IMG/VR virus record: IMGVR_UViG_2526164594_000016
Location: 1-18,162 of that record
Length of the DNA: 18,162 nt
DNA from: a virus
Lineage: Duplodnaviria > Heunggongvirae > Uroviricota > Caudoviricetes
Direction: 5' to 3' (one strand)
This document shows positions 3,048-16,927 of the stretch, one piece after another. A program made the translations under genes and the position numbers. The notes under the pieces are model-generated. The model saw only the letters and a program-made list of their open reading frames with translations. It had not been told where the DNA came from and did no database searches. Numbering within the stretch: the stretch's first letter is position 1; each line of letters begins with the position of its first letter.

Positions 3048-3124
3048 TGGCGCGTTGTAGTGGAGTCGAACCACTGACCGATTGCTTAGAAGGCAATTGC
3101 TCTGTCCGGCTGAGCTAACAACGC
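3048..3124 (-). tRNA. tRNA-Arg (anticodon UCU)
   Basis: Manual fold of reverse complement: acceptor GCGUUGU/ACAACGC, D stem GCUC/GAGC, anticodon stem AUUGC/GCAAU with loop CUUCUAA, T arm AGUGG-UUCGACU-CCACU, discriminator G, CCA encoded. Confidence 0.85.
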
Positions 3125-3224
3125 AGAATACCGATAATGGACCGCCATCGGGGACCCGGCCCCGCACCAACAACCCTGTTATGGTGTCGTCTGCTCTTCC
3201 TGATAAGCTAATGGCGGTTTGTGA

Positions 3225-3300
3225 TGGTGGCCCTTGCTGGATTTGAACCAGCGACCTGGCGATTATGAGTCGCTCGCTCTCACCACTGAGCTAAAGGGCC
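3225..3300 (-). tRNA. tRNA-Ile2 type (anticodon CAU, ileX/ileZ-like; formally could be tRNA-Met)
   Basis: Manual fold: acceptor GGCCCUU/AAGGGCC, anticodon loop CUCAUAA, T loop GGUUCAAAUCC, CCA encoded; closely resembles E. coli ileX from memory. Confidence 0.8.
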
Positions 3301-5534: not shown

Positions 5535-6638
5535 TTACCCGAGCACGCCGGTTGCAAAGGCGTGATCAAGAAAACGAAAAATTAAATCAACCTGGGAACC
5601 ATGCTTTTCTTCGAACGCCAGCGGATCCGCATGAAGCTCGTTGTGATGCTCCCGACACAGCGGTAGCGTGAAAATATCGTGGGATTTTGTTCCCATTCCG
5701 CCCTGACCATGACCAATCAGATGATGAGGATCGTCCGCTGGCTTACCACAACACGCACACGGCTGTGTCTTTACCCAGCGTGTGTATTTCTCATTTACCC
5801 AGCGGCGACGTTTAGGTCGTTTCATGAAGGATTCCGGAGACTCCGGATCAACGGCAATGCTGACCACCGTCTTTTCCTGTGGTGGGTTCTGTTGCTGGTG
5901 GGTGTGAGGCGGTAGCGCAATATTTTTTGTGCGCTGCTTCAGTATGCTGGTGGCGGTCTGTTCTCCCGGTATGATGTCGCTTTCACGGTATACGGAGCGG
6001 ATTTTTTCCGCCGGTAATCCCAGAGAGCGACGCGATACTGCCTCAGGTAATGCGTCCACCACCTGATTGCAGACTGCCCACCAGGATAATTCAGCCAGCG
6101 ATAATTCCCGCTCCTGCGTGCCATTCATTACATGGCGTATGACGTCAATCATCCAGGCTGTCAGATTTTGTTGAGTAAGTTGCTCAAGTGATTCGGAGGT
6201 CTGGTCGCGCAGCTGGTTGTCGCAGTGCCAGCACAACACCATTGCGCCAGCACCGTAACTGTGAATAACGGTTTCGCTGTGATGATAATCGCCGTGTGGC
6301 CACTGGCAGGATTTCACGTGACGTAATAACCAGTCAGACAGTGCACCAGCGCCGCCAGCTGCACGAATCACCCGCTCATCGCTGAAAAATGGCAGCAGTG
6401 ATTTATCTTCCGCCAGCGGCTGGCGAACAGCAGGAACCGCTCCAGATGGCAGCGCCCGCATGTTTTTCGGTTCCGGCTCCACCAGCACCCTGCCGCGATG
6501 AAAAACTGGCAATGATTCACGACCGGGCTTAAGGACCACCAGCCCGAGTTCCGGAACCAGAACAGGTCGAAGTAATACCCGCACATTACCTCCAGACGCG
6601 CTGACGGTAGCAGGCATGTGTCCGTGGCAGATGTGCAC
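5535..6638 (-). CDS. DUF968-family lambdoid prophage protein (YdfU-like) with C-terminal HNH-like Cys/His motif; start uncertain (GTG 6638 or ATG 6617)
   Basis: C-terminal CACCGKPADDPHHLIGHGQGG…LCREHHNELH motif; position between rem-like ORF and rusA. Confidence 0.7.
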   Translation of the reverse strand: MHICHGHMPATVSASGGNVRVLLRPVLVPELGLVVLKPGRESLPVFHRGRVLVEPEPKNMRALPSGAVPAVRQPLAEDKSLLPFFSDERVIRAAGGAGALSDWLLRHVKSCQWPHGDYHHSETVIHSYGAGAMVLCWHCDNQLRDQTSESLEQLTQQNLTAWMIDVIRHVMNGTQERELSLAELSWWAVCNQVVDALPEAVSRRSLGLPAEKIRSVYRESDIIPGEQTATSILKQRTKNIALPPHTHQQQNPPQEKTVVSIAVDPESPESFMKRPKRRRWVNEKYTRWVKTQPCACCGKPADDPHHLIGHGQGGMGTKSHDIFTLPLCREHHNELHADPLAFEEKHGSQVDLIFRFLDHAFATGVLG

Positions 6639-6858
6639 GAACAGGAAGATATACAGAAACGGTCCAGGTCAGACGATCAGCGTTCAGACTCCGCTCCACA
6701 CAGACACCGCGACGCAGATACGCCTCTTGAAGCATATCTGCCTCATCGATCGTACAGAACAGATAGTGAAACCAGCCATACTGAGGCGCACGAAAACGCC
6801 TCCCCTGCTTAATTTCCGGGTCGGCTTCAGAATTGTGGGATTTTATGTGTTGTGTCAT
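6586..6858 (-). CDS. Small hypothetical prophage protein (90 aa) in the rem position of Qin-like prophages
   Basis: ATG with GGAG 8 nt upstream; overlaps the 5' end of the DUF968 ORF in another frame. Confidence 0.4.
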   Translation of the reverse strand: MTQHIKSHNSEADPEIKQGRRFRAPQYGWFHYLFCTIDEADMLQEAYLRRGVCVERSLNADRLTWTVSVYLPVRAHLPRTHACYRQRVWR

Positions 6859-6935
6859 CGGATTCTCCGGTGACAGCAGGTGTCAGTTGTTCAGGCTGAC
6901 TGCGCGAATTGTAAGGCAATACGCCGGAATGTACA

Positions 6936-6964
6936 AACAGAAAACCCGTCAGTAAGACGGGCTT
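6936..6964 (-). terminator. Intrinsic terminator downstream of the ygiW-like gene
   Basis: minus-strand AGCCCGUC-UUACU-GACGGGUU followed by a U-rich tail. Confidence 0.5.
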
Positions 6965-6979
6965 AACAAGCAGGGGCGG

Positions 6980-7324
6980 TTACTTTAATAATTTCAGTGC
7001 CTTTACATCAACTTCAACACTGCTCAGGTCTTTATCAATTTCACCCTCAATTCTTACTTTGTCTTTCGGAGAAACATTCTGCCCGGCCCATACGCTGTCA
7101 TCAATATCCGTGACAATTGTCCCGCTATTGTCACGAAACTCATAACGTTCATCACCCACTTTTTTAACGATGCTCCCTTCAAGGATAACCCATGCATCAT
7201 CCTTCAGTTCTTTTGCCTGCGCTACTGTTGAACGCTCTGCTTCTGGCCCCTGGAAACCACCCTGCTGTGCAAAAGCGCCAAAAGACACACCGGAAATAAG
7301 TGCTGCAATCAATACCTTTTTCAT
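6980..7324 (-). CDS. YgiW/YdeI (BOF, OB-fold) family periplasmic protein with signal peptide
   Basis: 114-aa ORF, N-terminal MKKVLIAALISGVSFGAFAQ signal sequence; family resemblance from memory. Confidence 0.75.
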   Translation of the reverse strand: MKKVLIAALISGVSFGAFAQQGGFQGPEAERSTVAQAKELKDDAWVILEGSIVKKVGDERYEFRDNSGTIVTDIDDSVWAGQNVSPKDKVRIEGEIDKDLSSVEVDVKALKLLK

Positions 7325-7443: not shown

Positions 7444-7599
7444 TTACTTCTCAGATTCGTAGTCTACGAAGACAGCGACCTCCGTCTGACCGGTTCGGAT
7501 TCGCACCTCGCAGAGGTCTTTCCTCGTTACCAGTGCCGTCACTATGACGGTTAAACAGATGACGATCAGGGCGATTAACATCGCCTTTTGCTGCTTCAT
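7444..7599 (-). CDS. hok: Hok/Gef-family type I toxin (HokD-like, 51 aa)
   Basis: MKQQKAMLIALIVICLTVIVTALVTRKDLCEVRIRTGQTEVAVFVDYESEK matches the Hok family; AAGGAG upstream; in-frame upstream extension to 7656 is in the usual mok position. Confidence 0.85.
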   Translation of the reverse strand: MKQQKAMLIALIVICLTVIVTALVTRKDLCEVRIRTGQTEVAVFVDYESEK

Positions 7600-7889
7600 A
7601 GCCTGCTTCTCCTTGCCTTTCGGCACGTAAGAGGCTAACCTACATGTGTTCAGCATGGATTGAGCCTCAGATTAATGTTAAGCGTCTTGCAGGACGCGTA
7701 ATGTTAACTGGGGCTTTTCTCTATCTGCCGTTGGTGTTCATGCCCGAGGCAGATAGCCTCAAGCACCCGCAGCAATTCTACTTAACTATCCTTTTCCCGC
7801 AAACCGTTTTTATCCCCAGCGGCAAATCGAATACACCACCAGCGCCACCGCCATCGCAATTCCTACCGTTGTGAATGCTTCAGGCCAGG

Positions 7890-12458: not shown

Positions 12459-12617
12459 TCATATTTGAGCGCCCCGGCAGTGACTGGCCTGAATTAGCAA
12501 CGCCCATTTCCACGGAACGTCTTCCCCCCACATGCTGACTGTGGTTTTTGACGTTCCTAGAGCGGCGGCTGTTTTAACAACTCCGCCAAAATAGCCTAAT
12601 ACTTCTGATTTTTTCAT
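12459..12617 (-). CDS. Cro/YdaS-like small HTH repressor (52 aa)
   Basis: ATG 12617 with GGAG upstream; YFGG-x-x-K-x-A-x-x-LG HTH motif; divergent from the cI-like gene. Confidence 0.6.
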   Translation of the reverse strand: MKKSEVLGYFGGVVKTAAALGTSKTTVSMWGEDVPWKWALLIQASHCRGAQI

Positions 12618-12708
12618 GAGTCGCTCCATAAAACTGAACGCCAAAAGTTTAATAATCAAAACCAAAGAAAGTCAAGAAACAAAACCATCTGTGTTTTAAA
12701 ATCAAAAC
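12618..12708. promoter_or_regulatory. Divergent promoter/operator region between cro-like and cI-like genes
   Basis: 91-bp AT-rich intergenic region with repeated CAAAAC/GTTTT half-site-like motifs and short inverted repeats (for example aaaaccatctgtgtttt). Confidence 0.4.
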
Positions 12709-13347
12709 ATGAACAAGCAAACAATATCTGAACGCATAACCCAACGTATGCATGCGCTAAACTTGAAAGGCAAAGACCTTGTCAATGCCACTGGCGCATC
12801 AAAAGGCTCCGTAAGTCAATGGATGAACGGTGGAGGAGCGCCGTCCTCGCGTTACATAAGTTCACTGGCAAAGATATTGAAAGTAAACGAAAATTGGCTT
12901 CTTAATGGAGGAGAGTTAAATACAGGTGATTCGCTTGATCTATCTTTACCGCCGATAAAAACGGTTCCGCTACTATCACTTCAGCAGGCAGCAAGCTGGA
13001 GTGATTATATGAAAAATTCCTCAATAACCTCTTGTGTGCAGCTTGTCGGAGAAATCCCGGCCAATACCTTTGCTGTTGTTCTAGAGAGTGACAGTATGTC
13101 GACATCTGGTGGTGGAGTTTCCATCCCAAATGGTTCAACAGTTTTTGTTGATCCCGATCGAATCGTACAACCAGGAAATATTGTCCTTGCCTTACCCAAA
13201 GGGACCACAACGCCTGTCATTCGCAAACTGGAGATAGAAGGGCCGGATATTCTTTTAGTCCCCACGAATCCTCGCTACCCTTCAATTATGCTGGATGATC
13301 TATCTTGCATATTGGGAGTATGCTTTAAAATTCAACAAGATATTTAA
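12709..13347 (+). CDS. cI-like prophage repressor (N-terminal HTH-XRE, C-terminal S24 LexA-like autopeptidase)
   Basis: 212 aa; HTH near N-terminus; S24 motifs (ESDSM serine region, IRKL lysine region); ATG without Shine-Dalgarno. Confidence 0.85.
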   Translation: MNKQTISERITQRMHALNLKGKDLVNATGASKGSVSQWMNGGGAPSSRYISSLAKILKVNENWLLNGGELNTGDSLDLSLPPIKTVPLLSLQQAASWSDYMKNSSITSCVQLVGEIPANTFAVVLESDSMSTSGGGVSIPNGSTVFVDPDRIVQPGNIVLALPKGTTTPVIRKLEIEGPDILLVPTNPRYPSIMLDDLSCILGVCFKIQQDI

Positions 13348-13639
13348 CCAACCTCATCTATTTGATTAACTGTATGCCATCGTAGTGATGGCGTAACAGC
13401 TGCCTGCTTAAAATGTTTTGATAAAAAAACATTGACCTTAAATGTTCGCTTTTCTAAACTTCATTCATTCCCTCACCCCGCCCCACAGAATGCAGGGCAA
13501 TACTTCGAGTTACCAGGCAGTGGTCAGGGGTTAAGTAGCCAGCCCGAGGCGTAAGAACATGACGGCAGGGTTCAACTTTAATAACTATGCAGCAGGTTTT
13601 TGTTCCGCTACCCCGGCGTTAAGGGGAAATGAGGTCAAC

Positions 13640-13792
13640 ATGGATACGCTCAATCTTGGCAACAACGAATCTCTGGTATGTGGCGTGTTCCCCAACCAGG
13701 ACGGTACGTTCACCGCGATGACGTATACCAAAAGCAAAACGTTTAAAACTGAAGCTGGCGCGCGTCGCTGGTTAGCCAGAAACACTGACTGA
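13640..13792 (+). CDS. YdfA/YdaF-like small prophage protein (DUF1391-like, about 50 aa)
   Basis: ATG 13640 with GAGG 5 nt upstream; ORF opens at 13559; position directly downstream of the repressor as ydfA in Qin. Confidence 0.5.
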   Translation: MDTLNLGNNESLVCGVFPNQDGTFTAMTYTKSKTFKTEAGARRWLARNTD

Positions 13793-13803
13793 TGAGGTTG
13801 ACG

Positions 13804-14442
13804 ATGGAATTTAAAGATTTACCTCCTTCAATCCAGGAGATTGCAGCACACACACTTCGTCATCGTCTGAACGAACTTGAATTGGAATCGGTAACGAAAA
13901 AAGACACTGATAATATGGCTCGTAATGTGCGCGATGCGTTTACCGGATTGTATTTCTGTGCGTCTATAAATAAACACGACTCAGAGAGTGTGGCAAATAA
14001 AATTGCAGAAACGACAGCGCAAAACATCAATACGAAACCAACGGAAGAAGAAATTGATCAGTTTGCTCATGATGCTGGTTTAAAAAACAAGAAAGAAAAA
14101 TCGCCATATGCGGGGAACATGTTTGTTTATGACAATCTCATCAGAATTCGTGGCGAAATTCCGGCGGAATACCTGGCAAGAGTCCATCAGGCATTGCTTA
14201 AAAATTTGGAAACAGAATTATTTGATGGCAACACTAACGGTTTCTTCATGGTATCAGGCCTTGAGAAAGACTGGGATGCAGAAAAACGCTGGAATGTTGC
14301 TACATGGTTATTCAGTAACAGAGCCGCTGCACTGGAAGCTTCGGCATGTATTTGCGGCCTGTTCTTAACAGACCACAAATATAATCTGGATGTGTACAGT
14401 TATATTTACGCTGAACACGGTCCACTCTGGATTGACTGGTAA
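13804..14442 (+). CDS. Uncharacterised protein (212 aa from ATG 13804; 216 aa from ATG 13792), no recognisable motif
   Basis: GAGG 5 nt upstream of ATG 13804; upstream ATG 13792 overlaps the preceding stop (TGATG). Confidence 0.6.
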   Translation: MEFKDLPPSIQEIAAHTLRHRLNELELESVTKKDTDNMARNVRDAFTGLYFCASINKHDSESVANKIAETTAQNINTKPTEEEIDQFAHDAGLKNKKEKSPYAGNMFVYDNLIRIRGEIPAEYLARVHQALLKNLETELFDGNTNGFFMVSGLEKDWDAEKRWNVATWLFSNRAAALEASACICGLFLTDHKYNLDVYSYIYAEHGPLWIDW

Positions 14443-14652
14443 TTATAAGGAAACACCAGCAGGGCCGCGGCGACCAACAGAACGATTAAAATCAATAATG
14501 CCATTATAAAGGACATTATTTAATTTATCGTCGAATGCTGATTCTGTGAGCCTCAACTCTGAATGAGTTTTTAATAACCCTGATTGCCTGAGTTGATTTA
14601 CCAGGCATTCAATCTGTTTTTCAATAAGCGGATTTCTTTTTTTGTTTGGCAT
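14443..14652 (-). CDS. Small convergent ORF (69 aa) of unknown function
   Basis: ATG 14652 preceded by GGAGG at 5 nt; stop codon directly abuts the stop of the 216-aa gene (TAATTA). Confidence 0.3.
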   Translation of the reverse strand: MPNKKRNPLIEKQIECLVNQLRQSGLLKTHSELRLTESAFDDKLNNVLYNGIIDFNRSVGRRGPAGVSL

Positions 14653-14989
14653 TTTATCCTCCATTGAGGTTCTGGGTTAAAAATGGAGACCAACACGCTG
14701 TCACGTGTGGTCGTGCGCCGGACACGGATAAGAATCCGGTACTGACAGTTTACTGAAAGGATATTTCCCTGAAAAGTCAGTGCATAACGCGAAAGCGTAC
14801 GGCGAAGCTCTTTCCCTTAGAAGGCTTGTCGTTAGATTTCTTCGAACGTGCGCTTCCGGTTGTGGCACTCCGCGAAATGGCGCGGCGGTAAGTATGGCGG
14901 GGTTATTCCTTCCCCATTGAGGACACCGGGTTGTCAGGTTGACCATACGCTTAAGTGACAACCCCGCTGCAACGCCCTCTGTTATCAAT

Positions 14990-15048
14990 TTTCTGGTGAC
15001 GTTTGGCGGTATCAGTTTTACTCCGTGGCTGCTCTGCCGCCCTTTTTA
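14990..15048 (+). ncRNA. dicF: DicF small RNA (ftsZ-targeting sRNA of the dicB operon)
   Basis: ttctggtgacgtttggcggtatcagttttactccgtggctgctctgccgccc followed by ttttt matches DicF from memory with about one mismatch; lies just upstream of dicB as in Qin. Confidence 0.65.
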
Positions 15049-15216
15049 AAGTGAATTTTGTGATGCGGTGAATGCGGCTAAGCGCACGCGGAACAGTTAA
15101 AACCAAAAACAGTGTTATGGGTGGATTCTCTGTATCCGGCGTTAATTGTTAACTGGTTAACGTCACCTGGAGGCACCAGGCACTGCATCACAAAATTCAT
15201 TGTTGAGGACGCGATA

Positions 15217-15405
15217 ATGGAAACGTTATTACCAAACGTTAATACGTCTGAAGGTTGTTTTGATATTGGTGTTCTGCTCAGTAACCGGGAGTTTACTGAA
15301 GATGCCATTAACATGAGGAAATATGAGCCTTATCTGCTCAATGATAATTCCATACTTTCCCGAATTGCTCTTCTTGAACTTGGTATTTTCGGAGAACGTC
15401 AATGA
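15217..15405 (+). CDS. dicB: DicB cell-division inhibitor
   Basis: 62 aa, METLLPNVNTSEGCF… matches K-12 DicB N-terminus from memory; GAGG 8 nt upstream. Confidence 0.8.
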   Translation: METLLPNVNTSEGCFDIGVLLSNREFTEDAINMRKYEPYLLNDNSILSRIALLELGIFGERQ

Positions 15406-15590
15406 CTTCAGCATTTGCACTGATGATGACGGTTTTTCTTATAACGGGTGAATCACAGAATGTGATTACCGGAATTTATGCCAGTAAAGAATCCTGCCTC
15501 CAGGCAAGAGACGAGCAAAAAATTTCTGGTGAATGCCTCCCGGTAAAAAAAGTATCGCTGTACCTGAATAACGAAACACCGGCTGGATAA
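15402..15590 (+). CDS. YdfD-like small membrane/lysis-type protein (62 aa)
   Basis: ATGA start/stop overlap with dicB; GGAG upstream; N-terminal hydrophobic segment FALMMTVFLITG. Confidence 0.55.
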   Translation: MTSAFALMMTVFLITGESQNVITGIYASKESCLQARDEQKISGECLPVKKVSLYLNNETPAG

Positions 15591-15682: not shown

Positions 15683-16927
15683 ATGAGCACTGATAAAGAA
15701 GAATTTGCGCTATATTGCGAAGCAAAAAATGACAAAGTCAGAAAACGTCTGGGAATTAAAGGTGGTTTTTACTGGACTACAGCAAAAAAATTATCTGTTG
15801 CCATCTCCCGCTGCATTACCGCAATGGATGACAACGATTATGATGAAGACGACTTTAAAAAACCCGTTCGCGTCCATTTACCCGTTGTGAATGACCTTCC
15901 ACCTGAAGGCGTGTTTGATACCGAATTCTGCAACCGATACGAAAAAGGCGGGGAAGATGGCATTACAATGGTATTTATCGCGCCCTCTCCCTCCGTGCAG
16001 GAGAAACCAGCCAGTACTGACAATACCAACGTCAACGGCGAAGACATGACGGAGATTGAGGAGAATATGCTCCTGCCGGTTTCTGGTCAGGAGCTGCCCA
16101 TTCGCTGGCTTGCGCAACACGGCAGCGAAAAACCAGTAACGCACGTTGCACGGGAAGAACTTCAGGCATTACATATAGCACGGGCGGAAGAACTGCCGGC
16201 TGTTACTGCCCTGGCCATTTCTCACAAAACAAAGCTGCTCGACCCGCTGGAGATTCGCGACCTTCACAAACTGGTACGCGACACTGACAAAGTTTTCCCT
16301 AATCCCGGTAATTCAGACCTGGGACTGATAACTGCTTTTTTCGAGGCATACCTGGACGCTGACTACACTGATCGGGGTCTGCTGACAAAAGAGTGGATGA
16401 AAGGAAATCGTGTTTCGCGTATCACCCGTACGGCTTCCGGTGCAAATGCCGGTGGCGGGAACAAAACCGATCGCAATCCGAATTTAGTACACACCTTCGA
16501 TACGCTGGATGTGGAGATTGCAGCAGCCACACTTCCGATGGATTTTAATATTTATGAAATTCCGGGCAGCGTTTATCGTCGCGCAAAAGAAATCGTCCTG
16601 AAAAGAGAAAGTCCGTTCAAAGAATGGTCCGCAGCACTTCGCGCAACCCCGGGTATTCTGGACTATTCCCGCGCCGCTATTTTTGCACTTATCCGGAGCG
16701 CTCACCCTGAGTTTTATCACTACCCGGGACGCCTTCAGGGGTATATCAACGCCTACTTAACGGAGACTGATCACGAGAACCCCAGCAAGGAAACTCTCAC
16801 TGCTGCACGACATACACCGGAAAAAGATATCCTGGAAGAAGTTAACCGCGAACTGTCTGCTAAGCAGGAAACAGAAGAAGAAAATGATGAAGAAAAACCG
16901 CAACCATCTTGCGCAATGGCAGAATGA
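15683..16927 (+). CDS. Uncharacterised acidic protein (414 aa), YdfE-position gene
   Basis: GAGG 9 nt upstream of ATG; no catalytic motif recognised; stop overlaps the ATG of the integrase fragment. Confidence 0.6.
   Translation: MSTDKEEFALYCEAKNDKVRKRLGIKGGFYWTTAKKLSVAISRCITAMDDNDYDEDDFKKPVRVHLPVVNDLPPEGVFDTEFCNRYEKGGEDGITMVFIAPSPSVQEKPASTDNTNVNGEDMTEIEENMLLPVSGQELPIRWLAQHGSEKPVTHVAREELQALHIARAEELPAVTALAISHKTKLLDPLEIRDLHKLVRDTDKVFPNPGNSDLGLITAFFEAYLDADYTDRGLLTKEWMKGNRVSRITRTASGANAGGGNKTDRNPNLVHTFDTLDVEIAAATLPMDFNIYEIPGSVYRRAKEIVLKRESPFKEWSAALRATPGILDYSRAAIFALIRSAHPEFYHYPGRLQGYINAYLTETDHENPSKETLTAARHTPEKDILEEVNRELSAKQETEEENDEEKPQPSCAMAE

Follow-up and report, generated by a model that had tools for sequence, protein, structure and literature searches.

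Which kind of genes occupies the space beyond the repressor of a lambdoid prophage, and do such genes serve the lysogen or the early phase of lytic growth? We addressed this question for an 18,162-nt stretch of viral DNA (IMG/VR record IMGVR_UViG_2526164594_000016, hereafter the window), in which a gene that we call A lies downstream of a cI-type repressor and is met head-on by a small gene, B. The original prediction had placed these genes in a rex- or sieB-like slot for lysogen-expressed exclusion cargo. The window is a lambdoid prophage of the Escherichia coli O157:H7 type, and comparison with related loci identifies its A/B region as one allele of a polymorphic, convergent two-gene accessory cassette in the variable slot of a dicBF-type early-left operon. 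The parts of the cassette, in window coordinates, are as follows.

13804–14442, plus strand: gene A (212 aa), phrog_2151 at E 2e-147; its 216-aa version begins at 13792
13804–13977, plus strand: N-domain of A, about residues 1–58, shared among cassette types
14089–14439, plus strand: domain X of A, about residues 96–212, the type-specific C-terminus
14443–14652, minus strand: gene B (69 aa), phrog_4274 at E 1e-51, convergent with A and in the sieB slot
13960–14650, no strand: exchangeable part of the cassette, comprising the 3' body of A and all of B beyond its first 1–4 codons
14653–14712, minus strand: leader or "head" of B, with ribosome-binding site, inverted repeat CTCCAT...ATGGAG and hairpin

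The polymorphism is most evident in gene A. Its first 55–90 residues (MEFKDLPxxIQEIAA...NVRDAFTGLY) also begin many proteins whose C-termini are unrelated; the N-terminal 55–79 aa match four further PHROG families, and in about 45 representative proteins the similarity is confined to the N-domain. At least six cassette types were distinguished, each with a type-specific A C-terminus and its own small convergent open reading frame (ORF) of 61–105 aa. In the other types the stop codons abut or the frames overlap by 12–33 nt, and five of the small convergent ORFs, B included, correspond to PHROG families. DNA homology between this cassette and five other types (72–93% identity) ends at 13941–14011, corresponding to A codons 46–69, and resumes at 14640–14651, corresponding to B codons 1–4 with their shared "MEDKM/MPNK" head, or at 14713 for two of the types. 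Because these breakpoints lie in the 5' ends of both genes, the alignments indicate that each gene keeps its 5' end and expression signals while the two 3' bodies are exchanged together. Variation in the other small ORFs was too low for a selection test, and every variant is intact.

The ORFs on which the original prediction was built are real: a 50-aa ydfA-like frame (13640–13792), the 216-aa frame (13792–14442) and the convergent 69-aa frame (14443–14652), the last with the strong Shine–Dalgarno sequence GGAGGATAAAATG ahead of its start. The stop codons of A and B adjoin as described (TAATTA, 14440–14445), and RefSeq annotation by the Prokaryotic Genome Annotation Pipeline (PGAP) calls the ydfA-like gene, A and B in O157:H7 genomes that are 100% identical here. 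The suggested translational coupling of A to the ydfA-like gene through TGATG fared less well. The 216-aa ORF does begin at 13792, but the MEFKDLP start at 13804 (212 aa) is chosen by PGAP, by the PHROG profile and by every homologue and stands 6 nt after GAGG, while loci with a different gene ahead of A lack the MRLT extension; for these reasons MEFKDLP is probably the true start and the coupled MRLT start not real. The 153 homologues of A (65–100% identity) all come from Escherichia or Salmonella, and 36 homologues of B were found. The ratio of nonsynonymous to synonymous substitution rates (dN/dS) is 0.15–0.19 for domain X and 0.19–0.27 between the two allele groups of B, and 21 distinct DNA variants preserve an intact B. 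Given so low a ratio (0.15–0.27) and ORFs intact across variants, A and B both qualify, by these measures, as genuine genes.

The two genes also travel together. Of 80 viral-contig loci with gene A, nearly every one that extends far enough shows a convergent B. A set of 79 loci with a B-like gene was fetched later and shares many contigs with the first; all 79 also carry a domain-X gene, so that no B-like gene without one was seen in this set. Beside A/B loci the repressor may be 100% identical, about 30% identical or not detectable at all, and the dicB alleles range from 47 to 100% identity. The original prediction had asked whether the pair is conserved beside repressors, and the module was found next to many different ones; the 69-aa ORF is conserved in related prophages, and the 216-aa protein belongs to no known family with a non-defence role.

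When 1.84 billion representative proteins were searched exhaustively by profile, only two distant relatives of domain X (about residues 96–195) emerged, P0175 and P0188. Both are Salmonella prophage proteins convergent with a B homologue (64 aa, 46% identity, E 3e-13) that faces the domain-X gene. In this Salmonella pair, domain X is 38–40% and B 46–47% identical to the E. coli proteins and the 3' ends overlap by 11 nt; the pair belongs to another operon there, where it comes after cox in a P2-like switch region, and in some of the A relatives (P0175 type) a cI-like helix-turn-helix (HTH) domain separates N-domain from domain X. Synonymous divergence is 1.5 for the N-domain, against 0.5–0.6 for domain X and 0.31–0.46 for B, from which it appears that the N-domain has recombined independently and has a separate history. 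Domain X and B are inherited as a unit as far as the Salmonella relative. In one Salmonella enterica locus (L086), the HTH-bearing A relative (6185–7108) adjoins a P2-type integrase and repressor, and a strong terminator-like hairpin for the B homologue (11 pairs and a T-run, 6245–6270) lies inside the coding region of the A relative.

To place the cassette in its operon, the surrounding features have to be considered.

12459–12617, minus strand: cro-like gene, Pfam P22_Cro at E 6.7e-11, start of the divergent early-right operon
12647–12708, no strand: OR-like operator region with two GTTTTGATNNNNAAAC copies (12647–12662 and 12693–12708)
12709–13347, plus strand: cI-type repressor (212 aa), Pfam Peptidase_S24 at E 8e-13 plus HTH_3
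13415–13460, plus strand: OL-like operator (13415–13430, the same motif) and candidate pL/dicBp-equivalent promoter (13432–13460, TTGACC-17-TAAACT)
13640–13792, plus strand: ydfA-like DUF1391 gene (50 aa), Pfam DUF1391 at E 3.6e-30, first gene of the early-left operon
14991–15042, plus strand: DicF small RNA, Rfam RF00039 at 75 bits against a gathering score of 48, E 2.9e-15
15217–15405, plus strand: dicB (cell-division inhibitor), Pfam DicB at E 6e-37
15402–15590, plus strand: ydfD-like DUF1482 gene, Pfam DUF1482 at E 3e-15
15683–16927, plus strand: RecE-like ORF, downstream on the operon strand, a partial pseudogene in the PGAP annotation of the identical O157 locus

The description of the ydfA-like gene as directly downstream of cI passes over a 292-nt spacer between it and the cI stop codon (13347), and this spacer carries an operator motif and a promoter-like site (TTGACC-17-TAAACT). 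Exactly three copies of this 16-bp motif, GTTTTGATNNNNAAAC, are present in the window, where chance would give 0.13; in 200 shuffles the count never rose to three. Two copies lie in the cI–cro spacer, one of them overlapping the -10 of a minus-strand promoter-like sequence (TTGACT-18-TAAACT, 12675–12646), and the third adjoins the -35 of the ydfA-side promoter. On the same strand downstream of A follow DicF, dicB, the ydfD-like and the RecE-like genes, and B is the sole opposite-strand gene, embedded antisense in the early-left operon. In K-12, dicBp drives the corresponding operon from a site upstream of ydfA; the prophage repressor represses this operon, which has been described as equivalent to pL (PMC10448788). 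From the predicted operator and promoter after cI, the DicF, dicB and ydfD-like elements downstream and the K-12 precedent, we infer that ydfA and A are early, repressed genes of a dicBF-type (pL-equivalent) operon, not lysogen-expressed cargo.

This placement leaves little room for the rex-type slot of the original prediction, in which ydfA and the 216-aa gene would be co-transcribed with cI in the lysogen as an exclusion system. The shared strand is compatible with such an arrangement, as is the lack of a clear intrinsic terminator after cI, where a hairpin at 13376–13392 has no T-run. The genes nevertheless lie beyond the operator motif and promoter-like site, form the 5' part of an operon that is repressed in the K-12 lysogen (PMC10448788), and occur as the same cassette behind unrelated repressors; with no RexA/RexB or defence-family match besides, we regard this explanation as largely refuted and very improbable.

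The relationship to the dicBF operon of Qin (ydfA-ydfB-ydfC-dicF-dicB-ydfD) is close. The leader, ydfA, DicF, dicB and the ydfD-like gene are homologous, the ydfA-like protein is 88% identical to K-12 YdfA with DNA homologous to both Qin and Rac, and a candidate repressor-controlled promoter lies upstream of ydfA, as in K-12 (PMC10448788). DNA alignment with Qin covers the ydfA leader and ydfA and resumes at about 14710 to run through dicF and dicB. The only stretch that cannot be aligned is the cassette (13793 to about 14705, about 0.9 kb), which replaces ydfB and ydfC and, unlike them, has one gene on the opposite strand; the repressor also differs, being of the cleavable cI type with an S24 domain where Qin has the short DicA. 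This non-alignable length must be distinguished from a difference in slot size. The slot had been thought to be 0.9 kb larger than in Qin, but the distance from the ydfA stop codon to dicF is 1199 nt against 719 nt in K-12, a difference of about 0.5 kb.

Comparison with lambda and Rac indicates what kind of position B holds. In lambda, sieB (34482–35036, plus strand) adjoins N (35037–35438, minus strand). In Rac the order is racR, ydaG, ydaF (DUF1391), a convergent sieB, the kilS small RNA, kilR and recE, with a 3' overlap of 4 nt between sieB and ydaF, and the Rac flanks are homologous to those of the window (87% identity in the leader, 86% in the DUF1391 gene, 78% in the small-RNA region). 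Because lambda and Rac sieB share the antisense geometry and the Rac flanks are homologous, B can be placed in the sieB position. The sieB half of the original assignment thus stands for the 69-aa ORF, which has the lambda and Rac geometry, and falls for ydfA and the 216-aa gene. K-12 Rac (L090 3750–3954) aligns with window positions 15004–15201 at 78% identity, matching kilS and the region upstream of kilR to the interval from DicF to dicB. On this evidence the small-RNA and division-inhibitor parts of the Rac and window operons are homologous, though kilR and dicB encode different proteins.

The likeness of B to sieB (lambda, P22, Rac) is one of arrangement: B lies antisense within an early-left operon, with its 3' end adjoining the preceding early gene. 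The proteins share no sequence similarity; B has 69 aa and on inspection shows no membrane segments, whereas Rac SieB has 162 aa with hydrophobic stretches, and an exclusion phenotype is known for sieB, not for B. The slot appears to accept other antisense cargo too. In three loci (L066 4350–5113, and also L076 and L080) a different convergent ORF of 211 aa (phrog_1244, function unknown), without a Pfam or PADLOC match, is inserted further right.

Database searches gave no functional assignment. Neither A nor B, nor alignments of them, matched a Pfam, NCBIfam or PADLOC 2.0 family or a PDB sequence, and the other cassette types gave no informative match in Pfam, NCBIfam, PADLOC or PDB; the PHROG matches of A, B and the other cassette proteins are to function-unknown families only. 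In Pfam, NCBIfam and PADLOC, A and B showed neither a toxin or antitoxin domain nor similarity to RexA or RexB, and no A type contains a secretion, delivery or identifiable toxin domain. A literature search for A or B by accession, name or PHROG number found nothing. The two proteins are thus uncharacterised, as the original prediction had held; they define new families, and the cassette is undescribed. An accessory module in the sieB slot of an early-left operon is of a familiar kind, and the convergent design with conserved heads and swapped bodies is unusual.

Structure prediction added little. The AlphaFold2 model of A is of low confidence (predicted local distance difference test score, pLDDT, 64; predicted template modelling score 0.43) and consists of four helices followed by a beta-beta-alpha-beta-beta-alpha-beta domain; the B model, two short helices, is also of low confidence (pLDDT 60). 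Foldseek comparison of the A model with viral structures yielded nothing below E 0.01, structure searches returned only generic, uninformative folds, and profile, PDB-sequence and structure searches found no recognisable DNA- or RNA-binding domain in E. coli A. Since A sits where N sits in lambda, an N-like antiterminator was considered and rejected: A has no arginine-rich motif, is swappable and is absent from Qin and Rac. In the Stx-type phage PA2 (L300 4001–4444), there is a 147-aa N-domain protein with 42% identity over 86 aa; its gene lies in the early-left operon of Stx2a-converting phages, after gam, recT, exonuclease and ssb.

The region upstream of B contains several possible regulatory elements. 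The inverted repeat CTCCAT...ATGGAG of the leader could occlude the B ribosome-binding site; as a Shine–Dalgarno-sequestering hairpin it was set aside, because it is conserved but omitted from the minimum-free-energy fold, and its invariance offers no covariation evidence. Folding of the leader as a whole has a z-score of -2.0. GTGACA-17-TTTAAC, the strongest promoter candidate within the B-specific leader, was rejected as a B promoter, being kept neither in the second allele group nor in Salmonella. Structured elements occupy the stretch between B and dicF (window 14653–14760, minus strand; L086 5900–6000 in Salmonella). The hairpin GCCGGA...TCCGGC is invariant, and a second hairpin shows compensatory variants: CCACACG/CGTGTGG in E. 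coli and CCCAGC/GCTGGG, CCCGAC/GTCGGG and CCCAAC/GTTGGG in Salmonella. Because one Salmonella variant has a G-U pairing on the operon strand only, the sequences suggest that this second hairpin works in the dicBF transcript.

Defective alleles of both genes occur. An A7 run (coding strand) at 14636–14642 covers codons 4–6 of B, and shortening to A6 shifts the frame. Eight of the 80 viral-contig loci have this A6 allele, and for at least 6 of 586 complete E. coli genomes, among them O145:H28 RM12581 and O26 RM8426, it gives the best match. The A6 allele could be slippage-based on/off variation or, in part, draft sequencing error; it was dropped as a strong argument, as it seemed frequent in draft-derived viral contigs but is rare in complete genomes. 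In the three loci with the 211-aa ORF, a 163-bp deletion (window 14489–14650) removes most of B and leaves A intact, and in one locus A is frameshifted and B intact.

How might such a pair work? In a lysogen, pL would be off and B would be made from a promoter of its own. On induction or heteroimmune infection, transcription from pL would run antisense through B, so that B would be silenced and A made. Domain X would bind B and, in the least certain step, B would act as a lysogen-expressed interference or exclusion factor and A as an early, type-specific escape factor that neutralises it; cassette diversity would then influence which lambdoid phages grow on which lysogens. The model is SieB of P22, which is controlled by antisense RNA and Esc (PMC12197685). 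The proposed likeness to sieB/esc/sas is that a lysogen-expressed factor is countered by the phage's own early function (PMC12197685), with the difference that the putative escape function would here be a separate convergent gene, A, and not an in-frame fragment of the same ORF as esc is. That A and B are matched antagonists with reciprocal expression, following this exclusion-and-escape logic, is the reading we prefer, yet we hold it tentatively and consider it more probably wrong than right.

Stated for the group as a whole, the locus may belong to an unrecognised family of polymorphic convergent pairs in enterobacterial lambdoid prophages, occupying the slot from the DUF1391 gene to the DicF/KilS RNA. 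A small lysogen-expressed protein would be matched to the variable C-terminal domain of an early lytic protein for type-specific exclusion and escape or for toxicity and immunity. Such pairs would decide which heteroimmune phages grow on which lysogens, and head-on transcription would make the expression of the two partners mutually exclusive. In this full form the idea is speculative, and we would sooner bet against it. In concept it resembles BstA/aba of phage BTP1, likewise an accessory locus beside the immunity region with a harmful activity that is off for the phage's own lytic growth. The two are not homologous; BstA, one large protein that is accompanied by a DNA anti-BstA element, is encoded on the repressor side of the switch.

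Several observations weigh against B as an exclusion factor that A would neutralise. B has no SieB match in Pfam or PHROG and no defence-protein similarity, and inspection of its sequence gave no sign of membrane character. Alignment of 34 distinct upstream sequences revealed no conserved sigma-70 site in the B-specific leader of about 55 nt; as no B promoter was identified, expression in the lysogen is assumed from position only. The low-confidence models of A and B provide no evidence that the two bind, and the PA2 N-domain protein has no annotated convergent partner. The orphan loci do not name a harmful partner, since A-only and B-only defective loci both occur. Co-inheritance of adjoining genes is partly expected from linkage, and the independent lineages number about five. 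Finally, the cI-like HTH of the Salmonella A relative would be expected of a regulator more than of a simple escape factor.

Nearly as likely as matched antagonists of the SieB/Esc kind, and itself far from probable, is the converse assignment of harm: A would be an early effector that damages or takes over the host, and B a lysogen-made antidote against leaky A, shut off by pL. A conserved A head with a variable C-terminal "warhead" recalls polymorphic toxin–immunity cassettes and type II toxin–antitoxin systems, and the former also resemble the cassette in having a small neighbour gene for each variant (61–105 aa) and exchange at conserved flanks. In size B is typical of antitoxins and immunity proteins, the pair is kept as far as Salmonella, and dicB and dicF of the same operon are toxic when derepressed (PMC5069750). 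Unlike those systems, however, the pair contains no toxin or antitoxin domain in the searches above, no recognisable toxin or immunity fold and, in A, no secretion or delivery domain; the genes converge instead of forming the usual co-directional, autoregulated operon, and under the proposed scheme they would be regulated oppositely, not co-transcribed. Loci in which B has been deleted or frameshifted moreover retain an intact A. For the induced K-12 operon, toxicity is reportedly attributed to dicF and dicB, a weak argument given that K-12 carries a different cassette.

The cI-like HTH domain of the Salmonella A relatives is the main reason to consider developmental regulation, with A regulating the early phase or the lysis–lysogeny decision and the B protein, its 3'-overlapping antisense mRNA or both modulating A, in the manner of lambda OOP against cII or of the small anti-regulator proteins of temperate phages. 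The P0175-type relatives that carry it lie directly after cox in a P2-like switch, and its PHROG matches include repressors and a "CII-like regulator". The convergent transcripts must overlap, and the terminator-like hairpin of the Salmonella B homologue lies within the A coding region. A core regulator would nevertheless not be expected as interchangeable cassettes or to be absent from Qin and Rac, and E. coli A has no recognisable DNA- or RNA-binding domain, which makes this explanation unlikely. We give a similarly low probability to mere linkage, in which two unrelated accessory genes would share abutting stops and the recombination breakpoints would fall in their 5' ends by chance. The site is a general place of exchange (ydfB-ydfC in Qin, sieB in Rac, the 211-aa ORF in L066), partnerless N-domain proteins exist, and the independent lineages are few. 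Retention of the Salmonella pair at 38–47% identity despite a different N-terminal domain, operon and flanks nevertheless speaks against pure linkage, as do the distinct B type that accompanies each A C-terminal type and the finding of no B-like gene without a domain-X gene in the 79 loci.

The locus is common in pathogenic E. coli. The 1.75 kb from 13348 to 15100 are 100% identical to many O157:H7 chromosomes, and at least 80% of this stretch was found in 572 of 5,426 complete E. coli genomes; cassette carriers make up 572–586 of the 5,426, about one tenth, many of them O157:H7 and other Shiga toxin-producing strains, with up to four matching places in some genomes. The cassette was not found in any isolated phage genome, and a scan that took one genome from each species detected no locus. 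Sequenced temperate phages, including OV696610.1 (Tritos) and LR597641.1 (mEp460), contain the ydfA and DicF flanks at 91–95% identity, and one such record carries a DicF annotation; a 2016 study had found neither DicF nor DicB in phage genome databases (PMC5069750). The cro-like gene covers only positions 1–42 of 60 of the P22_Cro profile, and PGAP flags a frameshift in it at the identical O157 locus; together with the RecE-like pseudogene, this indicates that the prophage is probably defective. Elsewhere in the window (7594–7768, 2105–2277 and 3051–3300), Rfam detects a sok antitoxin RNA (113 bits), STnc100 (103 bits) and two tRNA genes, and in O157 a Hok/Gef gene is annotated beside the sok RNA.

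Whatever the function of A and B, convergent genes with conserved heads and swappable bodies provide a clean example of module exchange that keeps expression signals in place. The cassette sits inside an operon that produces DicF and DicB, which are linked to cell division, phage resistance and virulence regulation in enterohaemorrhagic E. coli (EHEC). If A and B were type-specific antagonists, they would supply several new pairs of small-protein inhibitor and target. They would also form a second layer of phage–phage incompatibility on top of repressor immunity, which would help to account for the coexistence of so many lambdoid prophages in EHEC and for their recombination.

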